A DNA stretch of 63,108 nucleotides. It comes from an uncultured Candidatus Saccharibacteria bacterium (lineage in GTDB: Bacteria; Patescibacteriota; Dojkabacteria; CAZCSM01). The translations under genes and the position numbers were made by a program. Positions 7,282-33,097 of this stretch are shown piece by piece. The notes under the pieces are model-generated. The model had not been told where the DNA came from. It did no database searches and was given only the letters and a program-made list of their open reading frames with translations. The stretch is from assembly GCA_964501355.1 (NCBI GenBank), contig CAZCSM010000009.1:1-63108 (forward strand), written 5' to 3'. How positions within the stretch are numbered: position 1 is the first letter of the stretch; each line of letters starts with the position of its first letter.

Positions 7282-8319
7282 TTATCTTTTATAAAAATTT
7301 CTTGCCATTTTTGCTACATCAAATGCTACCGGAGCATCATAATTTGATAAAACAATGGCAATGAATTTGTCATCAGGATATATGTCCAGTCTAGCACTTA
7401 CTCCATCAAATTGTCCTGCATGTCCAATTCTCTCATAATCTTTTCCTCGAAATATGGCAAAGCCATAACCGGTTGATTTGGTAATTCCATTATATGTTCC
7501 CTCTGAAACATGTGGCATAAGCATTATTTTCCGCATATTTTCACTAACCAGCTGATTATTCATAAAGGCTTGTGAAAATTTATACAAATCCAATGATGTC
7601 GAGTATGTGTTTCCGCTTGCCGAACCTTTAATTGGAAGTCTTCCCCAATTTTCAACCGTTTCTTCAAGATGTTTTCCTGTAAGATAATCGATGTTTGTAT
7701 ATCCTATTGCGACATCATCCTTTATATTATTACGATCCCTTTCACAGTTGTCTGTATTAATCATCCCAGAGATTTTAAAGATGTTATAATTAATATATTC
7801 ATCATAACTTGTCCCGTTTACTTTTTCGATTATAGAACCAAGAAGCTCAAATCCATCCGCGCTATATAGAAATTCACCCAAAGATCCGTCTGGCTTATGT
7901 TTCGAGAAAAACTTTACAATATCATCAATTGTTTTCAATTTATCTCGAATGTCTAAATACTCTTTTAAGTATTTAGTGTTAATAAAACTTCCTAATCCTG
8001 AAGTATGTGTTAGTAAATGATGAATTGTTACTGTATCCCTTATCGTTTCATTAGGGTAATTGGGGAGATATTTTGAAACAGGATCTTGGAAGGATACCTT
8101 CTTTTGTTCTACAAGTTGGCAAATTGCAATAGCTGTGAATAATTTGCTAATTGAACCAATATTGAATTTTGTATTTGCAACATTTACAATTTTTAATTTT
8201 TTATTAGAAAATCCAGCAGAGTATTCAAAAATAACTTGATCGTCTTTTGCAAGCAAAACAGCACCCGAAAACTCATCGGATTTTGATTTTTCTTGTAAAT
8301 ATGAAAGAAAATCGTTCAT
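7282..8319 (-). CDS. serine hydrolase, beta-lactamase/class C-related family
   Basis: 345 aa with the SxxK motif in NIGSISKLFTA and a downstream HAG triad-like motif. Overall class C/esterase-like pattern. Confidence 0.8.
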   Translation of the reverse strand: MNDFLSYLQEKSKSDEFSGAVLLAKDDQVIFEYSAGFSNKKLKIVNVANTKFNIGSISKLFTAIAICQLVEQKKVSFQDPVSKYLPNYPNETIRDTVTIHHLLTHTSGLGSFINTKYLKEYLDIRDKLKTIDDIVKFFSKHKPDGSLGEFLYSADGFELLGSIIEKVNGTSYDEYINYNIFKISGMINTDNCERDRNNIKDDVAIGYTNIDYLTGKHLEETVENWGRLPIKGSASGNTYSTSLDLYKFSQAFMNNQLVSENMRKIMLMPHVSEGTYNGITKSTGYGFAIFRGKDYERIGHAGQFDGVSARLDIYPDDKFIAIVLSNYDAPVAFDVAKMARNFYKR

Positions 8320-8331
8320 CGTACTTTTCTT

Positions 8332-8820
8332 CTAAATTGAATGTTCTCTCACCCACTCTACAACCCGATTCAAATCTTCCCTCTTCACTTCCTTTTGCAC
8401 AATCATTTCTTCTGGCTTCACGCCAAGGAATAATCGGAAAATAAATTTGGTAAAGGCATTCATCTCGCCAGCAGTAATCCCGGGAAGTTTCATATATCCT
8501 GCGAAACTTTCACGAATTTCTTTTGGAATCATGTTGTATGCCTTCTGACTCCACTTGCCCTCTTGCGGTACTGCACCGACTGCCATGAGAAATATCTTTT
8601 TATCTTTTATCTTGTCCCAATTAGGTTTAATAATGTTTAACGATGCAAATTGTCCTCCACGAACTGGGCTTCCGATTATTATTAAACCATAATCTTTCAC
8701 CTTCTCGAAATCGAAGTTATTAAGATCGAATAAATCACTTTCGAGAAATTCTTCGTGTAGCCATTCTGAGTATTGCTTCGTGCTTCCTGTTTCTGAGGTG
8801 TAGAGGATTAAGAGTTTCAT
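8332..8820 (-). CDS. flavodoxin-like fold protein
   Basis: 162 aa. N-terminal MKLLILYTSETGSTKQY is a typical flavodoxin phosphate-binding loop. Confidence 0.65.
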   Translation of the reverse strand: MKLLILYTSETGSTKQYSEWLHEEFLESDLFDLNNFDFEKVKDYGLIIIGSPVRGGQFASLNIIKPNWDKIKDKKIFLMAVGAVPQEGKWSQKAYNMIPKEIRESFAGYMKLPGITAGEMNAFTKFIFRLFLGVKPEEMIVQKEVKREDLNRVVEWVREHSI

Positions 8821-8844
8821 TTTTTAAGGAAATAAATTTAATAA

Positions 8845-9477
8845 TTATTCAAGAGAGGTCAATATAATCTGATCAATCTGTTGAGAGATTACCTCTCTTG
8901 AGGTTTCATCTAATGTCATGAGCCCCATTTGAGAGTGGTAATCTTCATACTGTGGATTTGCTAGAAATGCCAGATAATCATCAAAGTATTGTTTTGACCA
9001 AATTCTCATGGTCATTAATTCAACCATATCTTCAGCTGCCTGTAACATCGGTTGCCCCTTGTTATCGATACTTCCAAAAGTTGTCAATCCAACACCAGAA
9101 TGACGAGCTTCAATTAACACTGACTGTAAATCCATATAATCCTTGCATTGCCCTTCTGCAGCAATATCATATACGTGATTTATAGCTTTGTGAGAAAACT
9201 CATGAATACCTTTATATAACAAAACATCTTCTGCTGTTCTCGGAACACTGCTGCTAGGTTCATAGAAGATTTTTTTATAAACATTTTGAGGCATAGGTTT
9301 TGTCCCTATCATTATCTGAGGACCTCCTGGAATATTTTGCGAAACCCATGTGGCAGGATTTTCTATGATATTATTTCGATTTCCTCTACCATACCTTTCA
9401 TATAATCTATACCCCAAAGGATTTGCGCGCAGTCGTGATTCTATCCTTGTTGCCAAAACATTTTCTCCACTTGCCAT
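8845..9477 (-). CDS. hypothetical protein with HExxH motif (possible metallopeptidase)
   Basis: ATG at 9477 (MASGENVL). Contains IHEFSHKAINH (HExxH). No other recognisable family signature. Confidence 0.4.
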   Translation of the reverse strand: MASGENVLATRIESRLRANPLGYRLYERYGRGNRNNIIENPATWVSQNIPGGPQIMIGTKPMPQNVYKKIFYEPSSSVPRTAEDVLLYKGIHEFSHKAINHVYDIAAEGQCKDYMDLQSVLIEARHSGVGLTTFGSIDNKGQPMLQAAEDMVELMTMRIWSKQYFDDYLAFLANPQYEDYHSQMGLMTLDETSREVISQQIDQIILTSLE

Positions 9478-9613
9478 ACTATATTCAGTAATAATTATTA
9501 ATAGATATAAAATATCACAACTTTCCGATTGCAACAATGTGGACTACAGCTCTTCACAAACCTTCCATAATTAACCTATACAGTACTATCATCAAATATT
9601 TTATTTATTAAAC

Positions 9614-13132: not shown

Positions 13133-13645
13133 TCAAACTTCGACGACTAACCAACCAAATAAAAAGGAGAACAACAATTGTGGTAAATCATGATTTAATG
13201 ACGTTAGTGTTTTTACGGCATTTTGCAAGTCGGAGAACTTTTCGCTCTGCTCCTTTAATCTCTTTTCATTTATCGTATAACCTTGCACGATATGATCTCG
13301 AAGAACATTTGTCGCCCAGATTCGGAACTGTGTACCGCGTAGAGACTTCACTCTGTATCCAACAGAAATTATTACGTCGAGATTGTAATGTTCAATATTT
13401 CTTGTAACTTCTCTGTTTCCTTCTTTTCGAACTAGCTGGAATTTCCGGCGAGTTCGATTTTCATCCAATTCGCCTTCGGAATAAACATTCCCAATATGTT
13501 CTGTTATAGTCCTTCTGTCTTTGTCAAAAAGCATGCTCATTTGTTCCTGTGTCAACCAAACAGTTTCCTTCTCGAGTTTTGTTTCGAGTTCAATCTGATT
13601 ATCTTTCGTTTTGTATATTATTATGTTTTGATTTTCTTTTTTCAT
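13133..13645 (-). pseudogene. RhuM-family protein, N-terminal fragment (likely truncated)
   Basis: The 170-aa ORF matches the RhuM-type N-terminus (IIIYKTKDNQIELETKLEKETVWLTQEQMSMLFDKDRRTITEHI...VISVGYRVKSLRGTQFRIWATNVLRDHIVQGYTINEKRLKE). It then ends in a hydrophobic junk-like tail. Full-length family members are roughly twice as long, and about 385 bp of non-coding DNA follows. Confidence 0.55.
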
Positions 13646-13810: not shown

Positions 13811-15436
13811 ATGAAAAAGAATTTACTTAGCAAGAGAAACATCGCTCTATTAGTAGTTGGTATTCTCGTTTCTGCACTTGGGCTAACATACGTAAGTCTT
13901 CTTGTTCGTAATAAGAGAGCGGCTGACGATGTCATTGTTACCGAAGAGGAAGAGGTTGCCAATAAACCTGCAGTAACGACTGACGAACCTGCATTGACGG
14001 CTGATGAAATTGAAGGACTTAAAGCATCCGGTTTGAAAATTTATGAGGCTGATGAAACTGCTGTAACCGAAACAGATCCTAATGTTGATGAAGCGGAAGA
14101 AGTTGTAAGGATTGAACCTACTGAAGAAGAAATCCCTGTTCAGGAAGTTGTTGAACCTGTTGCTGAATCCTATGTTGATCAATTGAAAAACAGAACGATT
14201 GATACTTCCGCACAAACTTTTACGGATACGAGCAAGGGTGTTGTTGTCGGATATTTGGATAGATCTTATCTTGAAGGCTTCGAATTGGTAGAGGATGAAA
14301 CGGAAGCAAACGGTCTTTTCAATTTGTTCAAACCACAAGCTTGTTATGCTGCCGACATTATTCAAACTAGTGTTGCTTTCTATATTGGTGAAGAGTCCAA
14401 GAGTATTTATGCTCAGGATTTGCTTTTCGGCTTCAAATATAAGGTTTTAGAAATTGAAACAGGACAAATTGTAAATATAATGTTCTCGCGAAGTTCGCTT
14501 AGTCTTGTGTACCTTACTTTCGTACCAACTGATAACAGCTTAGTTTCCGGAACAATTATCAGTCAGTACTCAATTCTTGAAGGCGAGACAACTGTCATTG
14601 ATGGTTCTACCTACTTTGCATCCGATGTAGATAAACTTTCTGTGAATGGTAGATATTTGAGTTATTCAGATGGTTACCCTGCAAATTTAATAATTTATGA
14701 TTTGGTTGATCAAGAGGCTATTCTTAATATAGAAGCCTACTCAGGACAGTTTGTAACGTGGTCGAAAGATGAAGTGATTCTTTATTACGTAAAGAGTCCA
14801 TACAATCCTCAAACTGGGGAACTAGAAGCTAGATCTTTGGTAAAGGTCAATGTTCTCGATGGTAGCTCAGAAACTCTTGTTGAAGATTTCATTTCCGATG
14901 CCTTGGGCGTTGAAAGTTTGATGATTGATCCTTCTAATGAATCTACTATTTACTTAACGGCTTACATTGATGATATCTGGAGAGAAGATACTGTTCAACA
15001 GAGCAATTACATTCCGCATATTGTCTTTGGTAAATATTCATTGGAAACAGATACGGCAACTTATCTTAATGAGCTTGATGATGTTGAGCAGTTCTTAATT
15101 TCTCCTGACGGCTCTGTGGCTTATTTAATCGAGCGGGATTGGCCGGAGAATAATTCCGAAGACGAGCCTCAATATCAAAAGACTTACTATTCTCGTGTTG
15201 ATTTGGATACTATGGAACTTACGAGATTGGATGTATTGGAGTGGACTTATTGGAAGAATATTATTGGATGGAATGGTGATTTGGAGCATTTGATGTTTGA
15301 GAATCATGCGTACTTGGGTCAGTTCGAGAATGAAGCCGGTGAGTCTTATTCTAAGTATATGAATGAGATTTGGGAATATAATACGGTTACGCAGGAGGTT
15401 GTGAAGTTGTATGAGATTGAAGTGGGTGGTTTTTAA
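13811..15436 (+). CDS. TM anchor - acidic linker - beta-rich (propeller-like) surface protein
   Basis: 541 aa with TM helix IALLVVGILVSALGLTYVSLLV, an E/T/V-rich acidic linker and a large beta-rich C-terminal domain. Same architecture as the 3354..4700 product. Confidence 0.5.
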   Translation: MKKNLLSKRNIALLVVGILVSALGLTYVSLLVRNKRAADDVIVTEEEEVANKPAVTTDEPALTADEIEGLKASGLKIYEADETAVTETDPNVDEAEEVVRIEPTEEEIPVQEVVEPVAESYVDQLKNRTIDTSAQTFTDTSKGVVVGYLDRSYLEGFELVEDETEANGLFNLFKPQACYAADIIQTSVAFYIGEESKSIYAQDLLFGFKYKVLEIETGQIVNIMFSRSSLSLVYLTFVPTDNSLVSGTIISQYSILEGETTVIDGSTYFASDVDKLSVNGRYLSYSDGYPANLIIYDLVDQEAILNIEAYSGQFVTWSKDEVILYYVKSPYNPQTGELEARSLVKVNVLDGSSETLVEDFISDALGVESLMIDPSNESTIYLTAYIDDIWREDTVQQSNYIPHIVFGKYSLETDTATYLNELDDVEQFLISPDGSVAYLIERDWPENNSEDEPQYQKTYYSRVDLDTMELTRLDVLEWTYWKNIIGWNGDLEHLMFENHAYLGQFENEAGESYSKYMNEIWEYNTVTQEVVKLYEIEVGGF

Positions 15437-15456
15437 GGATTAATGAAGAAAAAGAA

Positions 15457-15484
15457 AGACCTCGCACAGAGCGGGGTCTTTTTG
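15457..15484. terminator. bidirectional rho-independent terminator
   Basis: gacctcgc-acaga-gcggggtc stem-loop flanked by an A-run upstream and a T-run downstream. It sits between the convergent 13811..15436 (+) gene and hsdR (-). Confidence 0.6.
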
Positions 15485-15547: not shown

Positions 15548-18500
15548 CTACAACTTCCCTCCTGATATATCGAAGAATTTCTCGAAGAAATTTGTCAATT
15601 TATCCAAAACATTTTCTCTCTTTTGTGTCCGTTCTCCAGTTGGGGAGAATCGTGAGATTGGCGGAAGAACCTTTGTAATTGCGGTTCCGGTTGTTGCGAC
15701 GTTTCCATCTCGGAAAGCATTTCTTACGAACTTGTATGTCGCTTCTCTATCAAGGTTTTCGTTTTTAATTATCTGTTCAAGCTCTTCCTCTTTTCTTTTG
15801 TTTACAAATCGTTGCCAATCTTCATCTACAACTGAATGTACATCAAGGGATGTAATAAATTGATTGATAAGGTCTTTCTTGTTTCGCAGTTCAACACTGG
15901 AATCAATTGCCTTGTTGATATCGATTAGTAGTTCTTTATTTTGAATATGATCTTCGTGATACTTCTTGATAAGCCCTAAGATGTAATCAATGTTGATCTG
16001 GACTTGCTTAATAAGTTCCATTTCGAAAACAAGATCGTCATTGATGTTTTCCTTCTCACCTTCAGCTGTTTTGCGGAATTCATTGTACAGGTCGATATAC
16101 ATGCTGTGGTAATCTTGTACATCTCGTTCAGTTAATATCTCATTGTCTATGAACTCGTCAAAGGTTGAAAGAATATTAGTAACTCGCAAAATTGCTCCAT
16201 ATAGCTTAATAAAGTCTTTTTGATCTTGCTCTCCTTCTATTCTCTTTCCAACGGGGAATTTTTCCAATAGTTCGTTGACTAAACTTTCATATCCTCGGAC
16301 CTGTTTCTCTCCATCTTTGTAGCCATGGTAATAATCCGCGTATGCTTTGAGGAGAACAATCCCGCTTGCATCTTTGTCGCCAAAGAGAGCGATGGATTCA
16401 TTGGTTTTCTCTTCTAAATTTCGGAAGCATACGATATTACCAAATGTTTTGATACTATTTAGAATGCGATTTGTTCGTGAATATGCTTGGAGTAATCCAT
16501 GCAATCTTAGTGTCTTATCTACCCAAAGAGTGTTTAGGGTTGTTGCATCAAAACCTGTTAAGAACATATTGACTACAATCAGCAAATCAATCTCTCTATT
16601 TTTCATTCGTTGAGATACATCTTTGTAGTAATTCTGGAATTTGTCGGATGAGGTATCGTAACTTGTTCCAAACATTGAATTGTAATCAGTGATTGCTTTT
16701 TCTAGAAAATCTCTTGAACTAACGTCTAGTCCACTTGTATCTTCAGAGTTTTCATCTATCATCCCATCAGCATCTTCGTCATTTACGCCAAAGCTAAATA
16801 TTGTAGCGATTTTCAATCTCTGAGCTTCGGGTAGTAATGCTTGTTGTTTTTCAAATTCTGCATAATACTTCTTCGCCATCTCGATTGATTGAACAGCAAA
16901 GATTGAATTGAATCCTGATAATCTGATCCTCTGTTTAATTTCTTCAACTTTGTTCCTATCTTTTGCGGTTACGATTTCCCCGATATTCTTTGTTACGTTA
17001 TAAATATACGATTTATCATTTCGCTTTGTTTTCTGATTGAAATGTTCGAGGATGTATTTAACGATATTCCCGAGTCTTTTCGAGTCGGTGAGAACGGCTT
17101 CTCGATCGATATCGTTCACCTTTTTATCTTCTATATCTTCGGCTTCACGAACTGTAGAGATATAATCGACTTTAAATGGTAGAACATTTTTATCGGCAAT
17201 TGCATTAACGATTGTATATGTATGCAATTTATCTCCAAATGCTTGTTCTGTAGTTTTGAAATCCGGTCGTCCGCCCGATGATGCGTTGACTGCGAAAATT
17301 GGTGTTCCTGTGAAGCCAAACAAATGGTAGTTTTTGAATGCTTTGGTAATTGCGGCGTGCATATCTCCAAACTGGGAACGATGACATTCGTCGAAAATTA
17401 GTACGATATGACCGTCAAAGATTACGTGTCCAGCATTTTTCTCAATAAACCGATCTAGTTTCTGAATGGTCGTTATTATGATATGAGCATTTGGATTTTC
17501 TAATTGTTTTTTAAGTATAGCCGTACTTGTATTGCTATTTGCCGCTCCTTTTTCAAACTTGTCGTATTCTCTCATCGTTTGGTAGTCCAAGTCCTTTCGG
17601 TCTACGACGAATAACACTTTCTCTACATATGGCAATTTGCTTGCGAGTTGTGCGGTTTTGAAACTGGTTAGTGTTTTACCCGATCCTGTTGTATGCCAGA
17701 TGTACCCACCGGCTTCTACTGTTCCTAGTTTTTTATAATTTGTACTTACTTCTATTCGGTTCAATATTCTTTCTGTTGCGACTATTTGGTATGGTCGCAT
17801 TACGAGAAGTGTTTTCTCGGATGTGAATACGCAGTATTTTGTCAGGATATTTAGTATTGCGTGCTTTGCAAAGAATGTCTTTGCAAAGTCCATCAGGTCT
17901 GTTATTGGTTTGTTTGTTGCGTCTGCCCACCAGCTCGTAAATTCAAAGCTATTGCTTGTTTTTCTTCCTTTCTTCGCTGTGCCTTCTCCTGTTTCTTTGA
18001 TGTGTCGATCTCGGGTTGTGTTGCTGTAATATTTTGTATGTGTCCCGTTTGATATTACGAATAGTTGTACGTATTCAAATAGTCCTGATGATGCCCAGAA
18101 GCTTTCTCTTTGGTATCTGTTGATTTGGTTAAATGCTTCTTGGATGGCTACTCCTCGTCGCTTTAGTTCAACATGAATCATCGGTAATCCATTAACCAAT
18201 ATTGTTACATCGTACCTATTCTCTCTTTGTCCGTCTTTTGTAGTGTACTGGTTTATGACTTGTAGAATATTGTCGTGGATATTGTCTTTTTTCAGCAAAT
18301 AGATATTTTTTACCGACCCATCATCTCGAGTCAAATTCTTGATATGATCTTCCTGAATTGTTGTGGTTTTTTCTTGGATACTTTGGTTAGGATTGGCTAG
18401 TTCTGCTTTGAAGAATCTTTCCCATTCGTTATCTGTAAATGTGTAGTCGTTAAGTTTTTCTAATTGCTTTCGGAGATTTCCTACCAGATCTTCTTCTGTT

Positions 18501-18685
18501 GTTATCCTCAAATATTCGTATGCTTGTGTTTGTAGTTGCTCGATGAATGCTTGTTCAAGTTCGGCTTCGCTTTGGTAAGAAATCCCGTCCTGTACCCTAT
18601 CAGAACGTCTGTGATATTCTGCGACGACAGTGCTCTGTGGATTCTCTACAACTAGATTGTACTTATTAGTCTGCATATTCATCAA
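15548..18685 (-). CDS. hsdR: type I restriction enzyme R subunit
   Basis: 1045 aa with an N-terminal nuclease region, SF2 helicase motifs (TGSGKT, LIFDECHRSQ) and a long helical C-terminal domain. It is the last gene of the hsd operon and overlaps the hsdS 3' end. Confidence 0.95.
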   Translation of the reverse strand: MMNMQTNKYNLVVENPQSTVVAEYHRRSDRVQDGISYQSEAELEQAFIEQLQTQAYEYLRITTEEDLVGNLRKQLEKLNDYTFTDNEWERFFKAELANPNQSIQEKTTTIQEDHIKNLTRDDGSVKNIYLLKKDNIHDNILQVINQYTTKDGQRENRYDVTILVNGLPMIHVELKRRGVAIQEAFNQINRYQRESFWASSGLFEYVQLFVISNGTHTKYYSNTTRDRHIKETGEGTAKKGRKTSNSFEFTSWWADATNKPITDLMDFAKTFFAKHAILNILTKYCVFTSEKTLLVMRPYQIVATERILNRIEVSTNYKKLGTVEAGGYIWHTTGSGKTLTSFKTAQLASKLPYVEKVLFVVDRKDLDYQTMREYDKFEKGAANSNTSTAILKKQLENPNAHIIITTIQKLDRFIEKNAGHVIFDGHIVLIFDECHRSQFGDMHAAITKAFKNYHLFGFTGTPIFAVNASSGGRPDFKTTEQAFGDKLHTYTIVNAIADKNVLPFKVDYISTVREAEDIEDKKVNDIDREAVLTDSKRLGNIVKYILEHFNQKTKRNDKSYIYNVTKNIGEIVTAKDRNKVEEIKQRIRLSGFNSIFAVQSIEMAKKYYAEFEKQQALLPEAQRLKIATIFSFGVNDEDADGMIDENSEDTSGLDVSSRDFLEKAITDYNSMFGTSYDTSSDKFQNYYKDVSQRMKNREIDLLIVVNMFLTGFDATTLNTLWVDKTLRLHGLLQAYSRTNRILNSIKTFGNIVCFRNLEEKTNESIALFGDKDASGIVLLKAYADYYHGYKDGEKQVRGYESLVNELLEKFPVGKRIEGEQDQKDFIKLYGAILRVTNILSTFDEFIDNEILTERDVQDYHSMYIDLYNEFRKTAEGEKENINDDLVFEMELIKQVQINIDYILGLIKKYHEDHIQNKELLIDINKAIDSSVELRNKKDLINQFITSLDVHSVVDEDWQRFVNKRKEEELEQIIKNENLDREATYKFVRNAFRDGNVATTGTAITKVLPPISRFSPTGERTQKRENVLDKLTNFFEKFFDISGGKL

Positions 18686-19922
18686 AGGTTAATAACTTGT
18701 TTCTATAAAACTCATATTGCTTTCTCCTCGCCTCCAGCTCAGCAGGAAGACCGATGGAAATGTCGTTAACAAGAGCATCAAATTTATCGAGAATAGCAAC
18801 AATGCGTTCTTGTTCGGCGAGTGGTGGAACTGGAATTTTGATTTTGCCTATTTCACCAAGATTAATTTTTATGGGTGTAGCATTTACAAGTGTTCTTTTA
18901 TATAATTCATTTCGCCCAGTTGAGCTTTCAATAATATATTTTAAATATTTACTAAGTATTTTTTCTTGATTTGGTCTAATTAATGTAAGAGTAACGTAAT
19001 ATGCAAGATCTTCCTCTTCTTTATCAATCACAGAACAAACACCAATAGATCCTATTCTTGTCATAAATACATCATTTAATTTTGGCTTTATCTTGTAAAG
19101 TTTATCGTAATCTTCTTTTGATATATATTTATTAGATTGATATAAGGATTTAATATTCTCAACACTTACAAATTTAACACCTTCAGCTGTATACTTTGGT
19201 GTTTGATGTGTTCCGTCGTAGATACTTGAGACATCCCTCAGCGTTTTCCACTCCAAATCATCCTCAAACGTCAACAACTCATCCCTATACCACTCATACT
19301 GCTTCTTTCTAGCTTCTAACTCAGCTTCTAACTCAGCTTCTAACTCAGCTTCTAACTCAGTAAAACTATCTAAGATTTTGACGATTTCCTCCTGAATGGG
19401 TAGAGGAGGAAGGGGAATTTGGATTTTTGCAAAGCGTTTCTTTGATATGTTGAATCTTGTTACTCCACTTGCCGTCCTCGCAATCTGCTTTCTTACGGGT
19501 TCATCTCTGAACAAATATTTCAAGAACCCGGGTAAAAACAAATCTTTGTCATGTAGACGGAAACCAAAACAAAAGCTATTTAAATACAATAGCTCATCAG
19601 TTTTTTTCGTTAAAACAGATGACATCCCACACTCATCTGGTGTTTCTGATGATCCCGTGAATAAAACATCTCCGTATTCAATCTTATTTTGTTTCTCATT
19701 AGACTTCATTTTTACAAAAACATCGACATCCGTATCAACGGCAATGTTAGAAAAAATATTCATATAGGTAATAAATTTTGCATTGCCGTTGCTAAAATCC
19801 TCTTTACTTTTTCCGGTAAGTCCACCGTAGAAGCCACCAAGTTCCCCAAGCTGTTTAAACTCCACGCCATTTGGGCAAAGTTCGGTGATTAGTTTTTCGA
19901 TTTTGGATCGGTGAGTGGTCAT
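18666..19922 (-). CDS. hsdS: type I restriction enzyme S (specificity) subunit
   Basis: 418 aa with two target-recognition domains separated by conserved helices (PLPPLPIQEEIVKILDSF...ARKKQYEWYRDELLTF and PVPPLAEQERIVAILDKF...ARRKQYEFYRNKLLTF). Confidence 0.9.
   Translation of the reverse strand: MTTHRSKIEKLITELCPNGVEFKQLGELGGFYGGLTGKSKEDFSNGNAKFITYMNIFSNIAVDTDVDVFVKMKSNEKQNKIEYGDVLFTGSSETPDECGMSSVLTKKTDELLYLNSFCFGFRLHDKDLFLPGFLKYLFRDEPVRKQIARTASGVTRFNISKKRFAKIQIPLPPLPIQEEIVKILDSFTELEAELEAELEAELEARKKQYEWYRDELLTFEDDLEWKTLRDVSSIYDGTHQTPKYTAEGVKFVSVENIKSLYQSNKYISKEDYDKLYKIKPKLNDVFMTRIGSIGVCSVIDKEEEDLAYYVTLTLIRPNQEKILSKYLKYIIESSTGRNELYKRTLVNATPIKINLGEIGKIKIPVPPLAEQERIVAILDKFDALVNDISIGLPAELEARRKQYEFYRNKLLTFDEYAD
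19311..19358. repeat. 4 perfect tandem copies of a 12-bp unit (AGCTTCTAACTC) inside hsdS
   Basis: Encodes (LEAE)x4 in the central conserved helix of HsdS. The copies were read directly at 19311-19322, 19323-19334, 19335-19346 and 19347-19358. Confidence 0.9.
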
Positions 19923-21358
19923 GTTAATAATGGGATTAAAGATTCAATTGAAGTTTTTAGTTCTAGATCTGTAAATTTTGTGTTATGCGAATTTTCGGGA
20001 TGATGAATTATATTTCTAATTCTTGTGGGTAATGTTGTATTGTATGTACTAACTGTTCCATCTTCCTTTAAGTGATTATATGTTTGATCTTTTGCGATTC
20101 CTTTGCCCACAAGGTAATCGTCAAAATCTTTAGGTTTGTAATATTTCTCATCTTCAAGAATTGCTTTCTCCTGTACAAACCCATAGAGCTCATTATGAAA
20201 TTCAACAGATAAGACGTCAAAAGCTCGATAGTTAATTTCTCCCCAAGTTGGACTTGATCCTCCAAACATATCTAATTCAAGACCCTCCTTAACCTTGTTA
20301 AAGCGATCTTCTTTTGAAAAAACATTTAGGGAATGGGTCTCTTTTTTATACTTTTTCAATAAATAAGGAGAATGTGTAATGACAAAGATTTGTGATTGTT
20401 GTGAAATCGTTTCAAGTGCATCAAGTAGTTTATTCTGTGCTTGCGGATGCAAAAATGTTTCTGGCTCATCAATGAAAAAGAGGATCGGCTTTGAAATAGG
20501 CTCCCCATTAGACGATGAAATATCTGCGTAAACCTGGATAAGAGAAAGAGCTAAGGCTCTCTGCATTCCAGTTCCCTTTTCAGAACTTCTCGTTTGGATA
20601 CCATGATCAGACATAACAATATTTCCGGATTTCAAAAAGTCTGAAATTTCAGGTAATGTAAAGTTAAATTTTACTTCAGTGTCTCCATACTGTTCTGATA
20701 ATTTACCCTGAATCTTCTCTTCAATTGGCTTCAGATGATCAGCAATTTCATCAAAGGTATCTTTGTGGGATTTTTGAAATTCTTTCCAACTATCTGCGAC
20801 ATTGTTACTAATGATTGTATTAATTATTTTTCCGCAAATCTTTGTTTTGGAAAAATCAGCAATGTCTCCTGAATCCGTATCGGCCCAAACAAACTGTGCA
20901 TCAAATAAAGCTGTTATCGTATTGTCAATTCCCGTGGGATTTTCAAATTGCGCTGTTGTGGGGTTAAAAATTCGAACATTTTTAATGGAGAGAACTTTCT
21001 CTTTCCCCTTCTGCATAATCTTTGTCTCCTCACTAGAACGCATGAGTCTCAAGCTTTTCCCACCATTATCATTGATGATATATGGTTTGTATTTCTTTAA
21101 TGCATCTATCTCAAGAATTAGTTCAAGATCATCTCCTTCAAATTCAATTTCAACTGAAACAGTATCTTCTTCACTAGCAGTTTTTATAATTACTTCATCT
21201 CTTGTTCTTTTTGTTTGTATAAAATCAATTGCTTGGAAAATAGATGATTTCCCACAGTTATTATCACCGACAAAGAAATTAACACCTTTGTCAAAGATAA
21301 GTTCATGATCGCCTTTAAAGCCTTTGAAGTTGTGTAGTTTGATCTTTGATATGTACAT
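19919..21358 (-). CDS. ABC/OLD-type (AAA_15/AAA_21-like) ATPase with a C-terminal HEPN-like module, embedded in the type I R-M operon
   Basis: 479 aa from ATG 21358 (MYISKIKLHNFKGF). Walker A GDNNCGKSS, signature-like SEKGTGMQRALALSL, Walker B ILFFIDEPETFLHP, VITHSP. The C-terminal ~140 aa carry TRIRNIIHHPEN (R-N-x3-H). The stop overlaps the hsdS ATG (ATGA). Confidence 0.8.
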   Translation of the reverse strand: MYISKIKLHNFKGFKGDHELIFDKGVNFFVGDNNCGKSSIFQAIDFIQTKRTRDEVIIKTASEEDTVSVEIEFEGDDLELILEIDALKKYKPYIINDNGGKSLRLMRSSEETKIMQKGKEKVLSIKNVRIFNPTTAQFENPTGIDNTITALFDAQFVWADTDSGDIADFSKTKICGKIINTIISNNVADSWKEFQKSHKDTFDEIADHLKPIEEKIQGKLSEQYGDTEVKFNFTLPEISDFLKSGNIVMSDHGIQTRSSEKGTGMQRALALSLIQVYADISSSNGEPISKPILFFIDEPETFLHPQAQNKLLDALETISQQSQIFVITHSPYLLKKYKKETHSLNVFSKEDRFNKVKEGLELDMFGGSSPTWGEINYRAFDVLSVEFHNELYGFVQEKAILEDEKYYKPKDFDDYLVGKGIAKDQTYNHLKEDGTVSTYNTTLPTRIRNIIHHPENSHNTKFTDLELKTSIESLIPLLT

Positions 21359-21359
21359 T

Positions 21360-22964
21360 TTATTCCTCCCCTTCAATATCCTTCACTATCTCATCAATCG
21401 CTGTCCTCAGCTCATTTTGCCTTGCAACGATTTCTTCTATTTCTGCATTAAGCTCCGTAATATCCACAACCTCGCGAGTATCCTCTGCCACTACATAACT
21501 CGAAACAGCAATATTGTAATCATTCTCAGCAATATCCTTACTATCTACAAGTTTTGCAAAGTATTCAGCATCTTCACGATCGGTAAACGCTTCCAAAATC
21601 TTCTTGCGATTTGCCTCACTCAGCTTATTCTTATTTCCACCACGAACAAATTCTGCAGAAGCATCAATAAAGAGAACTTTATTATCACTTTTACTCTTCT
21701 TCAAAACGATAATACAAGTCGCAATCGACGTTCCAAAAAATAGATCCGGTGGTAATTGAATAACAGTATCAACATAGTTGTTATCAACCAAATACTTACG
21801 AATCTTAGCTTCTGCACCGCCACGATAAAGAACACCCGGAAATTCAACAATAGCAGCAGTTCCACTTGTAGAAAGCCAAGATAGCATATGCATAGTAAAC
21901 GCCAAGTCCGCTTTACTCTTAGGAGCAAGTACTCCGGCAGGAGAAAAGCGAGGATCGTTTATGAGAAGAGGATTTGCATCACCTTCCCATTTGATAGAAT
22001 ACGGAGGATTGGAAACAATCGCATCAAAAGGTTCGTCATCCCAATGCTTTGGGTCAATTAGAGTATCTCCATGAGCAATATCAAAATTGTTGTAGTTGAT
22101 GTCGTGTAGGAACATATTAATACGACACAGGTTGTACGTTGTTAGATTAATCTCTTGACCGAAAAACCCTTGTCGAACATTTTCTCTACCAAGAACCTTT
22201 GCAAATTTAAGAAGTAGCGAACCGGAACCACAAGCCGGGTCATATACTTTATTCACTTCTTTTTTACCAACAGTAGTAATTTCTGCGAGTAGCTCACTAA
22301 CTTCTTGGGGCGTATAGAATTCACCTCCAGATTTCCCTGCACTCGAAGCGTACATCGTCATAAGAAACTCGTAAGCATCACCGAAAGCATCAATCGTATT
22401 ATCTGCGTAATCACCAAGACGAAGGTTCCCAATACTTTCCAAAAGCTTTGCTAGAGTTTGATTTCTTTTCTCTACCGTGCTTCCTAATTTGTTCGAATTT
22501 ACATCCAGATCATCAAACAGACCTTTCAGGTCGTCCTCACTACTTGAACCCTTAGCTGAGTTCTCAATATTATCAAAAACCGTAGAAAGAGTTTCGTTCA
22601 GATTAGCATCATCACGAGCACCTTTTAGAACATTTACGAAAAGTTCGCTTGGGAGAATATAGAAACCCTTTTCTTTGATAGTATCGGCTCGGCCTAACTC
22701 AGCGTCTTTGTCAGAAATTGTTGAGTAATCAAAATTCTTGTTACCAGAACGACGCTCGTCTTCATTAATGTAACTCGTTAAATTTTCACTAATGAATCGG
22801 TAAAAAAGCATACCGAGAACGTATTGCTTAAAGTCCCATCCATCAACACTTCCCCTTAAGTCATTAGCTATTTGCCAAATAGTGCGGTGTAGCTCCGCCC
22901 GTTCTTGTTCTTTAGTTGATCCACTCATGCTTATAGACAATTTCATATTAATTGACTTATACAT
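21360..22964 (-). CDS. hsdM: type I restriction enzyme M subunit (N6-adenine DNA methyltransferase)
   Basis: HsdM N-terminal domain (LHRTIWQIANDLRGSVDGWDFKQYVLGMLFYRFISE), SAM motif VYDPACGSGSLL, catalytic NPPY (VSNPPYSIKW). The start is ambiguous (ATGs at 22964, 22946 and 22928). Confidence 0.95.
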   Translation of the reverse strand: MYKSINMKLSISMSGSTKEQERAELHRTIWQIANDLRGSVDGWDFKQYVLGMLFYRFISENLTSYINEDERRSGNKNFDYSTISDKDAELGRADTIKEKGFYILPSELFVNVLKGARDDANLNETLSTVFDNIENSAKGSSSEDDLKGLFDDLDVNSNKLGSTVEKRNQTLAKLLESIGNLRLGDYADNTIDAFGDAYEFLMTMYASSAGKSGGEFYTPQEVSELLAEITTVGKKEVNKVYDPACGSGSLLLKFAKVLGRENVRQGFFGQEINLTTYNLCRINMFLHDINYNNFDIAHGDTLIDPKHWDDEPFDAIVSNPPYSIKWEGDANPLLINDPRFSPAGVLAPKSKADLAFTMHMLSWLSTSGTAAIVEFPGVLYRGGAEAKIRKYLVDNNYVDTVIQLPPDLFFGTSIATCIIVLKKSKSDNKVLFIDASAEFVRGGNKNKLSEANRKKILEAFTDREDAEYFAKLVDSKDIAENDYNIAVSSYVVAEDTREVVDITELNAEIEEIVARQNELRTAIDEIVKDIEGEE

Positions 22965-28720: not shown

Positions 28721-31700
28721 TTATTCATCCGGAATTGCAGTAACAATGCTAATGCCCGAATGTGTAAAAGCGGTTACCCCGCTTGGGATTGCAATTCCCC
28801 ATTCCAAATCAAGTGTCGCATTCGAAGGGTGTGAAGTCGGCTTTGTCAGGTTGGTATCAACAGAACTTGTAGTTGCAGATAAGACACTTCCAGAACCATA
28901 TGTAAATGGTGTTGTGGAATACTGCTGATTTTCGACTGGAATTACAGAAGCACTACACGTCGGGTAATCTGTACACAAATTCGAGCCTGATAAACTTAAA
29001 TCAATTGTTCCGTTTCCGGTATTTGTAATCGTTGTCGCATAGTTAGTAGAACCGGTATTTGTTCCTTTATCCAAGGTTTCATAATAAAGGGTGTCTTGTG
29101 CTGACATAGCAATAAGTGTTGCCATCTCGATTGTATCTGTATCTGCTGTTCCTGCACCAACTGTATCAGTTGGTGTCACTTGACACGTCCAGTCATCTGC
29201 TACATATGTCCCTGCATCTGTCGGATCTGCGTGATACCAGACGTTAAATGTGCAAGTGTAATCTTGTGTTAATCCACTACCGTTTGATGGAACACAGTTT
29301 GTGTTCCCACTTACTGTGTAGTGATTGTTATTATCATCTGTTGCTGAATATCCTACTCCTGTTCTGTATAAGTGTGCTCTTGCATATTGTATATTTCCAT
29401 ATCCATCTTCATCAGTTATTGTTGCTGTACAAGTCACTTCTGTTGTTGTTCCCTCGGTTAGATTAATAGCTAATGCATCTGCGTTAATTGAGACATTACT
29501 CGTGACAGGTAGTACGTTACCACCTGTGGTTGTGAATGAAACTATATCTCCATAAAATATCTTGTTATCTCCTCTTTTGAAAAAGGCTCTTGTGTAGTAA
29601 GTTGTTGCGATATCTAAACCAGTTAAAGCTGTTGTGAATGTTCCTGTTGTTGTTTTTGCCCCATTATCGTAAAATAGTTCATACCCAACCCCCTCTCGTC
29701 CCGAACCAGAGCTATAGAGATAGTCAATTTCGTCCTGATTTAAAGCTCTATCAAATATTCTGAAATCATCTATTTCACCAGAAAACCTTCCTGCACCACC
29801 GTTATTAATATTTCCAATATTAAAGGTGGTCCATGCGAATGCACTCGAAGTTGAGCCTACAGCAGTTTCAATATGCACTCCGTTTCTATAGTAAGTTATT
29901 CTTCGATTACCCATAACAAAATCAAAAGTAAAAACTAAGTGATACCACTGATTAGCGGTAAGTCCTAAAGATACAGAAGGGCTTGCATTGTGCCATTCAA
30001 CTGAACCCGTGTTGTAATTTCTTAAGACATTAGTAGCCACAGGTGCCGAGTCAAACATTCCAACAGGTGTTGCTGAATCTGAATTTACCCAGAAGGCAAT
30101 TGTTATTGGCAATGTAGGCTTGGGAATAGTTGCGGAAATAACATCATTCACTCCGTCAAGCGTAAGCGCGGAATTAATAACGCCTGTAACAGAGTGTGAA
30201 CTTGTGTAGTTGTCTGTTCCTCCTCCGCCAGTAAAGGTCGCATTGTAATTACCCATAAAGTCTTCAACGATTGAATTGTCTTCATTATCATTCATCTTCC
30301 ATTCAACAATAGGATCTAGGTATGCAGCTGTTGTATCTGTTGTAACTAATTGTCCGTGTTCTTGAGCGTAGTAATATCCAAATGATGATAGATTTGCATT
30401 CCCTACTCCTGAGTTTTCATTAATGTCTGTTACGGCACTCGTCGAAATTGTTGGAATTCTAAATTCTGTTGTTGCAAATGGACAATAATCTATTGGTCTG
30501 GTTGCGGTATCATTGACAGGGTTATTTAAAGTTAGATTTTGCCCACATTGCCCTCCTGCATCTGTATCATTAGGTCCGTCCAATCCTCCCCACCATAAGT
30601 TTTCGGCTAAGATTATAGTTGTCGTATTGTTGAAAAGACCATACGTTTTATTTTCAATATTTAAAGATGTGAGAGTTGGTGATACTGTTCCAGCCTGATG
30701 GTATATACCGTGTGTGTTGTATCTAAAGTTAGAATTAGTTATGGAAACATTGGTAGAACCGTTGTTGTAGATTCCATACCTTCCATATGACAAATCAAGA
30801 TAGTTTATAGTGTGAGTACCTGTTCCAGATAATGAAATATCCCGCCAGTTGCTAGTAGTGGGCATGGTTGCATTACCATCATTGTTAGTATCGCCTCCGA
30901 TAAAATCATTGAAGGTTGATGTTATATATACCATGTTATTTTGCTCTCCGTTTATATTAAGACTTGCACCATTGCTTATCGTAAGTGTCGACAAACTTAC
31001 ATTAAGAACTTTTATTACGACTCCTCCTTCTAGATTTAATTGGTTCGGGGCTCCGCTTACAGTGTAGTTGCCATATTGCAAATATGAAATGTTCTCTATC
31101 CCAGCAAAATTCCGCTGTGTTATTGCACAAATGTTTGATGGACAGGATGAGGTGGAACCTGAAGCCAATCCGTACATAATTGCGTTGTAGCTATTTGAGT
31201 TAGATCCAAATCCTAGCACATCTACATTGACACCTGAACCAAGCAGAGCAGAACCTGAATTGGGAGCCACTTCTATGATTGCAGTATTTTTAATGAAGTT
31301 ATTTCTTGCCGTTGTTAAATTTCCAAGATCTACTACGGATGCTCCTACTATATTACTTTCAAGATGTGAGTCTGTTATTGTTAAAGAGCTACCTAAACCA
31401 TCGGCTCTAGCGCCATGTTTTGTATATAGGATTTTTGTGTAGGTAATTGTTCCCGTCCCTCCACCATAAACACGAATATTATCCAAGTATCCAACCGCAG
31501 GAGTTGTAGAGCTACCATCATTATTTGTATCCCCACCATGAACATCATCTCTGTGGTCGGTAAATATAATTGGTTGCGATGCTGTCCCATTCATTTCTAA
31601 AGTAGAACCATTTACAGCAAGTGTTACAGCACTCCATACTAAACCCTTAATTATAACCCCTTCATCAACTATTAGACGGTTAGAACTTCCACTAACTGTA

Positions 31701-33097
31701 TATCCTGTGTATTGCAGATAGGGTATATTGCTAATTCCAGCAAATGTTCTCTGTGGTATACGACAAATATTTGACGGACAAACGGAAGCTGCACTAGACA
31801 GTGTTCCATAACCAATAGCATTGTACGCATTAAGGTCAGTTCCTGTACCCAAAATATCTGCATTGGCTCCTGTTCCTAAGCTTACGGTTCCTGAATCCAA
31901 AGATATTTCTATTGGAACTCTAGTATTTTTAATGAAGTTATTTCTTGCTGTTGTTAAATTCGCAAGGTTATCCACTGTAACGCCCAGCAGATTACTTTCA
32001 AGATGTGAGTCTGTTATTGTTAAAGAGCTACCTAAACCATCTGCCCTAGCGCCATGTTTTGTATATAGGATTTTTGTGTAGGTAATTGTTCCCGTCCCTC
32101 CACCATAAACACGAATATTATCCAAGTATCCAACCGCAGGAGTTGTAGAGCTACCATCATTATTTGTATCCCCACCATGAACATCATCTCTGTGGTCGGT
32201 AAATATAATTGGTTGCGATGCTGTCCCATTCATTTCTAAAGTAGAACCATTTACAGCAAGTGTTACAGCACTCCATACTAAACCCTTAATTATAACCCCT
32301 TCATCAACTATTAGACGGTTAGAACTTCCACTAACTGTATATCCTGTGTATTGCAGATAGGGTATATTGCTAATTCCAGCAAATGTTCTCTGTGGTATAC
32401 GACAAATATTTGACGGACAAACGGAAGCTGCACTAGACAGTGTTCCATAACCAATAGCATTGTACGCATTAAGGTCAGTTCCTGTACCCAAAATATCTGC
32501 ATTGGCTCCTGTTCCTAAGCTTACGGTTCCTGAATCTGGTGCGATCTCAATCGGTGTCCTATCATTCTTGTTAAACACATTTCTATTTGTTGTGAAAGAT
32601 CCTATTGCATAAGATGCTATGCCTAAACGGTTGCTTTCAAAAAGCGAATCATTTATTGTGGCTGTTGATCCATTATCAAAAACCCTTACTCCCGAATTGG
32701 CATAACGAAATATTCCGTAATTAATTGTTCCCGTGCCTCCAGCGTAGAGGTATACTCCCTGCCAAGCTGCGACTGCCGTTGATGTGTGATGAGTAAATAA
32801 AACTTCATTTCCACTGGTGCCATTTACATTTAAGGTTCCCGCAACTCTTAAATAAAAGTTTCCATTAGATCTTACTTCAACACCGGGTTGTATTGTTAAG
32901 GTAACACCACTATTTACAGTGAGATTATTTGTTAATATATATCTATTTCCAGTAGTCCATGTTGTGTTAGTACTTATCGTCCCGCTCACATCATAATCAA
33001 GTGCATCTGCCTTCCATGAAAACACAAACAACCCCAGCGTAAAGATGGGAATTGTCATCAAAATTATTTGTAGTAGTCTTTTAACAGCCGATCTCAT
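28721..33097 (-). CDS. giant secreted surface protein: signal peptide, 3 beta-helix-like modules, LamG-like domain, Ig-like domains, shared C-terminal module
   Basis: 1458 aa. Signal/anchor LLQIILMTIPIFTLGLFVFSWKADA. Three modules each contain C-P-S-N-I-C..QRTFAGISNIPY and GGDTNNDG strings. LamG-like segment LTLDGVNDVISATIPKPTLPITIAFWVNSD...GEIDDFRIFDRALNQDEIDYLY. The C-terminal 139 aa are shared with three neighbours. Confidence 0.85.
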   Translation of the reverse strand: MRSAVKRLLQIILMTIPIFTLGLFVFSWKADALDYDVSGTISTNTTWTTGNRYILTNNLTVNSGVTLTIQPGVEVRSNGNFYLRVAGTLNVNGTSGNEVLFTHHTSTAVAAWQGVYLYAGGTGTINYGIFRYANSGVRVFDNGSTATINDSLFESNRLGIASYAIGSFTTNRNVFNKNDRTPIEIAPDSGTVSLGTGANADILGTGTDLNAYNAIGYGTLSSAASVCPSNICRIPQRTFAGISNIPYLQYTGYTVSGSSNRLIVDEGVIIKGLVWSAVTLAVNGSTLEMNGTASQPIIFTDHRDDVHGGDTNNDGSSTTPAVGYLDNIRVYGGGTGTITYTKILYTKHGARADGLGSSLTITDSHLESNLLGVTVDNLANLTTARNNFIKNTRVPIEISLDSGTVSLGTGANADILGTGTDLNAYNAIGYGTLSSAASVCPSNICRIPQRTFAGISNIPYLQYTGYTVSGSSNRLIVDEGVIIKGLVWSAVTLAVNGSTLEMNGTASQPIIFTDHRDDVHGGDTNNDGSSTTPAVGYLDNIRVYGGGTGTITYTKILYTKHGARADGLGSSLTITDSHLESNIVGASVVDLGNLTTARNNFIKNTAIIEVAPNSGSALLGSGVNVDVLGFGSNSNSYNAIMYGLASGSTSSCPSNICAITQRNFAGIENISYLQYGNYTVSGAPNQLNLEGGVVIKVLNVSLSTLTISNGASLNINGEQNNMVYITSTFNDFIGGDTNNDGNATMPTTSNWRDISLSGTGTHTINYLDLSYGRYGIYNNGSTNVSITNSNFRYNTHGIYHQAGTVSPTLTSLNIENKTYGLFNNTTTIILAENLWWGGLDGPNDTDAGGQCGQNLTLNNPVNDTATRPIDYCPFATTEFRIPTISTSAVTDINENSGVGNANLSSFGYYYAQEHGQLVTTDTTAAYLDPIVEWKMNDNEDNSIVEDFMGNYNATFTGGGGTDNYTSSHSVTGVINSALTLDGVNDVISATIPKPTLPITIAFWVNSDSATPVGMFDSAPVATNVLRNYNTGSVEWHNASPSVSLGLTANQWYHLVFTFDFVMGNRRITYYRNGVHIETAVGSTSSAFAWTTFNIGNINNGGAGRFSGEIDDFRIFDRALNQDEIDYLYSSGSGREGVGYELFYDNGAKTTTGTFTTALTGLDIATTYYTRAFFKRGDNKIFYGDIVSFTTTGGNVLPVTSNVSINADALAINLTEGTTTEVTCTATITDEDGYGNIQYARAHLYRTGVGYSATDDNNNHYTVSGNTNCVPSNGSGLTQDYTCTFNVWYHADPTDAGTYVADDWTCQVTPTDTVGAGTADTDTIEMATLIAMSAQDTLYYETLDKGTNTGSTNYATTITNTGNGTIDLSLSGSNLCTDYPTCSASVIPVENQQYSTTPFTYGSGSVLSATTSSVDTNLTKPTSHPSNATLDLEWGIAIPSGVTAFTHSGISIVTAIPDE
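31352..31897. repeat. 546-bp direct repeat, copy A (intragenic)
   Basis: Identical to 31991..32536 except at two positions (31403 and 31406). The offset is exactly 639 bp (213 codons). Confidence 0.9.
31991..32536. repeat. 546-bp direct repeat, copy B (intragenic)
   Basis: See copy A. The shadow ORFs 31393..31590/32032..32229 and 31672..31863/32311..32502 in the track are duplicates at the same 639-bp offset. Confidence 0.9.

Follow-up and report, generated by a model that had tools for sequence, protein, structure and literature searches.

The DNA stretch analyzed here, referred to below as the window, comprises 63,108 nt of contig CAZCSM010000009.1 from an uncultured Candidatus Saccharibacteria bacterium. 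It carries a type I restriction-modification (R-M) operon on its minus strand, in which an open reading frame (ORF) of 479 amino acids (aa) lies between hsdM and hsdS, followed by hsdR (Table 1). An earlier annotation of this DNA (the original prediction) had proposed that the ORF encodes an OLD-type ABC ATPase with a HEPN-like RNase module at its C terminus, acting as a PrrC-like guard of the R-M system. Translation of positions 19919 to 21358 yielded the 479 residues plus a stop codon, and the TIGR00497 and Methylase_S matches of the flanking genes confirmed the predicted position of the ORF inside the operon. Its ATG starts 1 nt past the stop codon of hsdM, with a GGAGG 8 nt before it, and its TGA stop codon overlaps the start codon of hsdS in an ATGA. 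Thus, given the GGAGG, the 1-nt spacing, and the ATGA overlap, hsdM, the 479-aa ORF, hsdS, and hsdR form a single translationally coupled operon. A scan of the operon interior for consensus promoters and terminators gave hits at chance level only. The base composition of the operon was similar to that of its surroundings, and it is not marked as an island.

Table 1. Features of the hsd operon and of the 479-aa protein, and DUF2130 genes at homologous loci (coordinates refer to the window unless a locus is named)
Feature	Coordinates	Strand	Basis or conservation
Whole ORF: OLD-type ABC ATPase fused to HEPN-like C-terminal domain	19919..21358	-	Translation, Pfam, PADLOC, homolog search
hsdM, type I methyltransferase, immediately upstream in the operon	21360..22964	-	TIGR00497, 771 bits; N6_Mtase, HsdM_N
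hsdS, specificity subunit	18666..19922	-	Methylase_S, 7.9e-35; two target-recognition stretches
hsdR, type I restriction subunit	15548..18685	-	HSDR_N, ResIII, T1R_D3-like, EcoR124_C; TIGR00348
ABC ATPase module, residues 1 to ∼350, OLD/GajA/AriA clade	20309..21358	-	Pfam, PADLOC, P2 Old alignment
Walker A/P-loop, G31-DNNCGK-S38	21245..21268	-	G31, G36, K37 invariant in 29 homologs
ABC signature-like, S258-EKGTGMQ-R266	20561..20587	-	S258, E260, K261, T263, M265, Q266, R267 invariant (29 homologs)
Walker B/D-loop, I292-LFFIDEP-E300	20459..20485	-	D297, E298, P299, E300 invariant (29 homologs)
H-loop, T328-HSP331	20366..20377	-	T328, H329, S330, P331 invariant (29 homologs)
C-terminal domain, residues ∼366 to 479, alpha plus one beta-hairpin; predicted effector (RNase-like)	19922..20263	-	AlphaFold2; no curated family
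H388-N-E390, start of long helix 385-402; candidate "helix-2 acidic residue"	20189..20197	-	H388 in 76/78, E390 in 74/78
R448-N-I-I-H-H453, R-[N/H]-x3-H (Rx4H), end of helix 443-452/start of loop	20000..20017	-	R448 and H453 in 78/78
DUF2130 gene, locus L004	9451-10887		
DUF2130 gene, locus L012	9466-10749		
DUF2130 genes, loci L007, L009, and L020			

The N-terminal part of the protein is an ABC ATPase. At E values of ≤0.01, residues 1 to ∼350 matched the Pfam families AAA_15 (5.5e-31), AAA_21 (8.7e-24), SMC_N, AAA_23, AAA_29, and DUF2813. The top PADLOC model was Old (1.7e-55), with residues 1 to 356 aligned to model positions 2 to 350 of 578, followed by AriA (2.5e-33), many GajA models, and PtuA. 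Since the Old model was matched over those positions only, the protein corresponds to the ATPase part of Old without its Toprim part, and Pfam gave no Toprim match anywhere in the 479 residues, including the C-terminal 135 aa searched at E values of ≤10. The proposed affiliation with the ATPases of OLD, Gabija, and PARIS, with no Toprim nuclease attached, was therefore upheld. P2 Old itself showed 27% identity across residues 1 to 334 (tblastn to P2 old, 7e-20). When the whole protein was searched against PDB sequences, the relatives obtained were ATPases only, namely, Rad50, PtuA, retron ATPases, and the OLD-family endonuclease 6p74 (9e-5), and they aligned exclusively through the P-loop and the Walker B/H-loop regions. 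No NCBIfam model came near its cutoff for the 479-aa protein. All the motif strings quoted in the original prediction were present, and they were located at residues 31 to 39 (GDNNCGKSS), 258 to 272 (SEKGTGMQRALALSL), 292 to 305 (ILFFIDEPETFLHP), 326 to 331 (VITHSP), and 445 to 456 (TRIRNIIHHPEN). The catalytic motifs were invariant in 29 homologs, in accordance with which the ATPase is presumably active.

The C-terminal domain was searched exhaustively with phmmer against 1.84 billion representatives of 50%-identity clusters. A total of 511 proteins carried the domain at E values of ≤1e-3, and 141 did so at ≤1e-10. Among the matches listed, 77 were at least 400 aa long, and in 74 of these the domain followed an OLD-type ATPase detectable with the N terminus of the window protein; in P0258, one of the remaining three, the ABC ATPase was more divergent, and its Walker A, Walker B, and H-loop motifs were present. 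Conservation was counted across 78 cluster representatives (50% identity), every one of which had R448 and H453; both residues were also invariant in a further alignment (A2). H388, H452, and S470 were each found in 76 representatives, P454, E455, N456, and E390 in 74 each, and E374 in 70. The position after R448 was occupied by N in 61 and by H in 15, that is, by one or the other in 76 of the 78. The conservation of the Arg and the His on which the original prediction depended was thus confirmed, and it extended to divergent copies. In a subfamily from Actinomycetota and Bacillota the string is YIRNxIDHPG, and in one streptococcal copy it is IRNIIYHPEN, with H452 changed to D or Y. According to these copies the first His (H452) is dispensable, while the Arg, the Asn, and the second His are fixed. 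Given that H452 was replaced while R448, N449, and H453 were kept, R-[N/H]-x3-H is the constrained element, and its spacing is the canonical one of HEPN domains. Judged by this pattern of conservation, the R..H string is more than a chance feature.

Curated resources did not recognize the domain. With the C-terminal 135 aa, Pfam gave nothing even at E values of ≤10, and PADLOC yielded noise only (PDC-S09; E value, 0.029); PHROGs contained no match for the domain. The public names of the homologs were limited to "AAA family ATPase," "ATP-binding protein," "ATP-dependent nuclease," and "GajA/Old/RecF-like AAA domain protein."

The full-length AlphaFold2 (AF2) model was poor for the ATPase part, for which the alignment was shallow, and confident at the C terminus. 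Modeling of residues 360 to 479 with 50 diverse sequences gave a pLDDT of 96.9 and a pTM of 0.89. In protein numbering, helices were predicted at residues 372 to 380, 385 to 402, 404 to 407 and 409 to 418 (both short), 443 to 452, and 464 to 478, together with a beta-hairpin (425 to 430/436 to 441) and a loop (453 to 463) between the last two helices. In this secondary structure the Rx4H motif spans the junction between the penultimate helix (443 to 452) and the loop that leads to the last helix, and a variable insert (404 to 441) separates the motif helix from the long helix 385 to 402 that carries H388 and E390. In HEPN domains the motif is found where core helix 3 ends and the loop toward helix 4 begins, and inserts occur between helices 2 and 3 (PMC3710099). 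Because helix, loop, and insert follow the same order in the AF2 model, the positional hallmark of HEPN domains described in that work is present at the level of secondary structure. The sequence hallmark, Rx4-6H with a polar N, H, or D directly after the Arg, is also present, with R448 and H453 in the two fixed places and N or H at position 449. HEPN domains also have a conserved acidic residue in helix 2 near the motif; the candidate for it here, E390, sits in helix 385 to 402 of the predicted secondary structure and is not part of an Ex3[KR] pattern.

The genomic context of the homologs was then studied in one genome per species, which resulted in 79 loci; ORFs were called, clustered, and searched with R-M queries, and the partners were confirmed by Pfam. 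An R-M gene lay within 3 kb of the homolog at 48 of the 79 loci, and in 42 of these the gap was 300 bp or less, nearly always with both genes on the same strand. The linkage to R-M genes that had been anticipated was thus observed. It is far above that expected for a random gene (R-M genes represent, by our own rough estimate, ∼1% of genes or fewer), and it is a linkage to R-M as a class, with no single complex favored. Type I partners accounted for ∼25 of the 79 loci. Most of these showed the order hsdM-ATPase-hsdS-hsdR with a 4-nt overlap, as in Patescibacteria and in metagenome-assembled genomes of a Coxiellaceae bacterium, a gammaproteobacterium, and a member of the Bacilli; the distant copies from Bacteroidota and Ignavibacteria showed the order hsdM..hsdS-ATPase..hsdR. 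Type III partners were found at 13 loci, comprising 11 species of the Streptococcus mitis, S. oralis, and S. suis groups, plus L073 and L078. In the 11 streptococcal species the order was mod-res, a 28-nt gap, and then the ATPase gene. Further partners were DpnII cassettes with Dam, DpnII, and an N6_N4 methylase (L030, L031, and L043), an EcoRI-like methylase on one side of the ATPase and a GmrSD_N/HNH protein on the other, with or without an intervening DUF2130 gene (L004 and L011), and a D12 methylase followed by AlwI downstream of the ATPase gene (L005). An N6_N4 methylase preceded the ATPase at L076, and a ResIII plus Eco57I (ISP-like) enzyme did so at L052 and L050.

The copies that were 72 to 77% identical to the window protein include those of L004, L005, L011, and L043 and P0029, and these five lie outside type I operons; the sole neighbor of P0029 is a serine recombinase. 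Solitary copies were carried by plasmids, namely, pLH1 of Lactobacillus helveticus, an IncFIB plasmid of Klebsiella (where two copies of ISNCY flank the gene), and a plasmid of Weissella. In Streptococcus caprae and S. tangpeifui (L053 and L056, positions 8001-9497), the homolog is located as a single gene inside the his operon, between hisD/HAD hydrolase and hisB, and belongs to the RNxIDHPG subfamily. In Escherichia coli, 10 of 5,426 complete genomes carried a homolog adjoining a prophage integrase at the rcnR locus. This protein has 482 aa, is 37% identical to the window protein over its full length, and contains the string IRNHIHHPEN. At the two loci analyzed (L086 and L087, from SCU-316 and 90-1), its gene occupied positions 7998-9446, in the integrase-proximal slot, and its 90%-identity cluster also covered Enterobacter, Citrobacter, Pantoea, and Atlantibacter.

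Several known systems share part of these properties. PrrC has an overall plan similar to that of the window protein, with an ABC ATPase at the N terminus joined to a small C-terminal domain, which in PrrC is an RNase for which an Arg and a His are essential. Its gene likewise forms part of a type I hsd operon, and PrrC is regarded as a second line of defense once restriction has been disabled (PMC3710099). However, the window gene lies between M and S, whereas that of PrrC lies between S and R, and its product is longer (479 versus ∼396 aa). The window ATPase is of the OLD/AAA_15 type, and AAA_13, the Pfam family that covers PrrC and RloC, was unmatched in the Pfam scan; scans of the C-terminal domain with Pfam and PADLOC detected no similarity to PrrC either. 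PADLOC does detect PrrC systems, which are almost always of the type I kind (10.1101/2024.01.29.577857), whereas the window family spans loci of other types. RloC, according to PMC3710099, likewise joins an ABC ATPase and a C-terminal HEPN tRNase in one self-regulated polypeptide and is only sometimes linked to R-M or Fic/DOC genes. RloC is, however, much larger, with a long Rad50-like coiled coil and a zinc hook, whereas the window protein has a short OLD-type insert and gave no AAA_13 match and no RloC among the PADLOC matches listed.

With P2 Old, class 2 OLD proteins, and GajA, the window protein shares a common ABC ATPase clade, and there is a similar integrase-proximal position in prophages; P2 Old is now reported to be an abortive tRNase (bioRxiv 10.64898/2026.07.10.737580). 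Unlike these proteins, it has no Toprim domain and carries instead the ∼115-aa alpha plus beta-hairpin domain with RNxxxH. PARIS, whose AriA models match the window ATPase, senses the anti-restriction protein Ocr and cuts tRNA (10.1101/2024.01.29.577857), a trigger and an output of the kind proposed here for the window protein, but the candidate effector of the latter is fused and is not a Toprim domain. PARIS was rejected as a reading of the ORF, there being no neighboring AriB/DUF4435 (Toprim) gene and the flanks being hsdM and hsdS. MADS was also rejected, as the NCBIfam scores were 41.9 bits for MADS3 (cutoff, 420), 44.9 for MADS2 (cutoff, 720), and 61.6 for MADS5 (cutoff, 400).

ABC-HEPN groups beyond PrrC and RloC, the APECO1_4465 and ERFG_01251 types, were listed in 2013, both from prophages and from R-M operons that also contain RhuM and Fic/Doc genes (PMC3710099, Anantharaman et al.). 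Compared by description only, they resemble the present family in the RhuM and Fic genes of hsd loci, in the RhuM fragment of the window, and in the E. coli prophages. On the other side, the HEPN domain of ERFG_01251 is a "classical" one near the MNT-associated domains (PMC3710099), whereas the window domain matches no HEPN model. APEC O1 contained no close DNA-level copy of the E. coli homolog. The suggestion that the family may be an undescribed one consequently has to be qualified, in that no curated family covers the C-terminal domain but ABC-HEPN fusions to which it may belong, compared by description only, had already been listed.

The explanation that we favor, and to which we give slightly better than even chances, is that the protein is an autonomous OLD-type ATPase-gated RNase-like effector with a functional link to R-M. 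In a single polypeptide, the OLD-clade ABC ATPase would serve as sensor and switch, and the Toprim nuclease of OLD and GajA would have been replaced by the ∼115-aa effector domain with R-[N/H]-x3-H and the conserved His and Glu. The 479-aa protein would be made constitutively together with HsdM and HsdS and kept in an auto-inhibited form until a phage cue, most plausibly an anti-restriction protein, a DNA mimic, or aberrant DNA, altered the nucleotide or oligomeric state of the ATPase heads. Two C-terminal domains would then be brought together to form an active site, which would cut an essential RNA, with tRNA as the obvious candidate, and the infection would be aborted. Since ABC heads dimerize upon ATP binding and the active sites of HEPN RNases are composite and require a dimer, pairing of the C-terminal domains dependent on the ATP state would be a natural gating mechanism. 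Such a protein would be an autonomous mobile module, whose recurrent place in type I, II/IIS, III, and ISP-like cassettes would make it a second-line "guard of restriction," repeatedly embedded in R-M loci with no obligatory masking by one particular R-M complex. The solitary copies on plasmids, in a prophage, in the his operon, and beside a recombinase argue for this autonomy. There are precedents. PrrC and RloC are ABC proteins with HEPN tRNases (PMC3710099), the activation of the OLD-type ATPases of PARIS and P2 Old leads to tRNA cleavage (bioRxiv 10.64898/2026.07.10.737580; bioRxiv 10.1101/2024.01.29.577857), and in RloC, PARIS, and P2 Old the ABC ATPase senses a cue (an anti-restriction protein, a DNA mimic, or a DNA lesion) and the nuclease then cuts tRNA (10.1101/2024.01.29.577857; 10.64898/2026.07.10.737580).

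A number of results weigh against this explanation. Fold and profile searches provided no link between the C-terminal domain and HEPN domains or nucleases of any kind. Foldseek comparison of the C-terminal model with the PDB gave a best E value of 0.46 (TM score, 0.16, to actin), with HEPN absent from the top 50, and the best hit in BFVD had an E value of 0.15, with nothing significant. Given the poor sensitivity of Foldseek for small helical domains, these null results mean that no similarity was detected and do not prove a different fold. The profile of the C-terminal domain retrieved only noise from PDB sequences, none of 50 alignment members matched a HEPN family in Pfam, and hhalign against one HepT sequence gave a probability of 0.6%, with no signal; when HEPN-MNT pairs were sought in the fetched loci, only one HepT was present. 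The helices flanking the motif are short (9 to 10 residues) compared with those typical of HEPN domains. Besides, ∼40% of the loci had no recognized defense neighbor, which leaves room for a nondefense role, and the literature searched reports no activity, trigger, or phenotype for any member of the family.

With these results, the HEPN module of the original prediction held for the motif and its position, which fit, and could not be confirmed for the fold, which found no counterpart in the PDB or BFVD and no HEPN profile. The C-terminal domain is HEPN-like by motif and topology, with membership of the superfamily unproven, and a new small fold of similar chemistry is just as possible. Most likely, it is a metal-independent RNase, either of the HEPN type or with HEPN-like chemistry. 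A bolder possibility, which we regard as less likely than not, is that the domain represents an effector fold not seen before, which arrived by convergence at an RNase-like site of Arg, His, and Glu; the family would then be a new single-gene branch of the OLD-type defense ATPases, serving as a "guard of restriction" in general and responding to anti-restriction factors beside type I, II, III, and ISP systems alike. Other nuclease folds considered for the domain were rejected: a His-Me/HNH finger, suggested by the hairpin ahead of a helix, because the hairpin contains no conserved His; an HD domain because there is no HD doublet; and the PD-(D/E)xK and Toprim folds because the secondary structure is wrong.

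The original prediction had also invoked a latency of the PrrC kind imposed by the type I complex. In its strict form, the protein would be a latent anticodon nuclease bound by the HsdM/HsdS(/HsdR) complex and freed when a phage anti-restriction factor disables that complex. The embedding of the gene in the type I operon, with which it is translationally coupled, and the recurrence of the M-ATPase-S-R order with the ATGA overlap in many loci are what this model would lead one to expect. In addition, hsdR encodes an EcoR124_C domain, typical of the type IC family, to which EcoprrI, the host system of PrrC, belongs. The Arg and His are invariant, as they are in PrrC (PMC3710099). However, the closest homologs are not found with type I systems (L004, L011, L005, and L043, with P0029 beside the recombinase only), 13 loci lie behind type III mod-res, and many are solitary, in contrast to the almost exclusive association of PrrC with type I R-M (10.1101/2024.01.29.577857). 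Neither PrrC nor RloC was among the PADLOC matches listed, and the C terminus alone matched neither, just as AAA_13 was not matched. Since near-identical proteins sit with HsdM2S1, with a type IIS pair, or with nothing, masking of the PrrC type is the weaker reading; this part of the original prediction has lost ground, and we now consider it unlikely.

The same distribution bears on two further models. If the C-terminal domain were a binding or regulatory module, the protein would be an accessory ABC ATPase, for example, a sensor or clamp for DNA or DNA ends, acting via the neighboring nucleases (HsdR, Res, restriction endonucleases, or GmrSD-HNH). The lack of structural or profile similarity of the domain to any known nuclease would be accounted for, a restriction nuclease is encoded within 3 kb at most loci, and ABC ATPases often work with trans-acting effectors, examples being PARIS, Septu, and HEC-01 to HEC-03 (10.1101/2024.01.29.577857). 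Yet the solitary copies on plasmids, in prophages, and in the his operon have no partner nuclease, the partner nucleases elsewhere come from unrelated families, so that a specific interaction is hard to picture, and the invariant residues are of the catalytic type (Arg, His, His, Glu, and Asn) with the canonical RNxxxH spacing, all of which makes such an adaptor improbable. Very doubtful, in our opinion, is a role as selfish passenger or addiction module, in which a toxin-like mobile gene would gather in R-M cassettes and other "sinks," where insertion is tolerated and cotransfer occurs, and would contribute nothing to defense. Recombinases, integrases, and insertion sequence elements do adjoin homologs, the hsdM-hsdS gap carries other cargo as well (Fic, RhuM, and Bro-N), and the idea of a "genomic sink" has been discussed (10.1101/2024.01.29.577857). 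Against this, identities of ∼70% are maintained across distant phyla with all ATPase and C-terminal motifs intact, which indicates strong purifying selection; translational coupling with hsdS is conserved; and the integrase-proximal position in prophages mirrors that of known defense genes, such as P2 old.

An ABC ATPase with a C-terminal HEPN RNase that often rides in R-M operons is an established kind, of which PrrC and RloC have been studied. Absent from the curated resources and the literature searched were the combination of an OLD-clade ATPase with an RNxxxH domain in place of Toprim and the linkage across R-M types, as were a family model and a structural neighbor for the C-terminal domain. 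The family is a good, testable defense candidate with an E. coli representative, and it holds no conceptual surprise. Should the preferred explanation, an autonomous ATPase-gated effector linked to R-M, be correct, the family would be a very widespread single-gene R-M-associated abortive-infection module, ranging over candidate-phyla bacteria, oral streptococci, prophages and plasmids of Enterobacteriaceae, bifidobacteria, and Bacteroidota, which defense-finding resources label only with the generic "AAA ATPase" or "ATP-dependent nuclease." The OLD family would gain a swap of Toprim for a HEPN-like effector, and a new small domain would become available for work on structure and RNase specificity. 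The E. coli representative, WP_233618192.1, would be a tractable protein with which to ask whether the "guarding" of restriction described for PrrC and PARIS extends across R-M types.

Other genes were observed at the loci of the homologs. The gap between hsdM and the ATPase gene contained RhuM in L010 and L016, Fic/DOC in L015, and Bro-N in L027, and the gap from hsdM to the ATPase/hsdS genes is a cargo hot spot. Fic/DOC cargo was also present in L071, and in L048 genes of the Bro-N, Fic, and RhuM families surrounded an hsdM-ATPase-hsdR core. A DUF2130 protein of ∼430 to 480 aa, with a coiled-coil N terminus, was encoded directly past the ATPase homolog or hsdR at five Patescibacteria loci (Table 1); it could be an additional partner or one more passenger. 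Among Saccharibacteria, L024 contained, ∼2 kb upstream of the homolog, a 548-aa ORF (4424-6070) with an N-terminal AAA_15/AAA_23 P-loop region and an Eco57I/N6_Mtase methylase. In L026, L028, and L029, also from Saccharibacteria, the homolog came directly after a DUF6088/AbiEii pair, a type IV toxin-antitoxin/Abi module, and in L029 it was also adjoined by an hsdM-hsdR pair on the opposite strand. In Candidatus Enterococcus wittei (L049, 3945-9452), a single ORF of 1,835 aa has an HTH_3 domain at residues 17 to 69, then ∼1,280 residues with no Pfam match, and ends with a complete ATPase plus IRNIIHHPEN module (residues 1354 to 1835); this ORF reflects either a genuine fusion or read-through.

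In the window itself, a 13-bp G+C-rich stem-loop with runs of T (15453-15483) is located between the end of hsdR and a convergent ORF of 541 aa, and it looks like a bidirectional terminator that closes the hsd operon. This 541-aa ORF (13811-15436), on the opposite strand, had no Pfam match and separates the operon from a 170-aa minus-strand ORF (13133-13645) that lies ∼1.9 kb beyond hsdR. The latter matched only positions 2 to 84 of 252 of the RhuM model (1.3e-27) and looks like a truncated RhuM gene, whereas the RhuM cargo in the hsd operons of related loci is intact. On the other side of the operon, two adjacent giant ORFs on the minus strand (28721-33097 and 33157-38205; 1,458 and 1,682 aa, respectively), in which a Laminin_G_3/concanavalin-like domain was the sole recognizable Pfam match, probably encode surface proteins with no relation to the ATPase.

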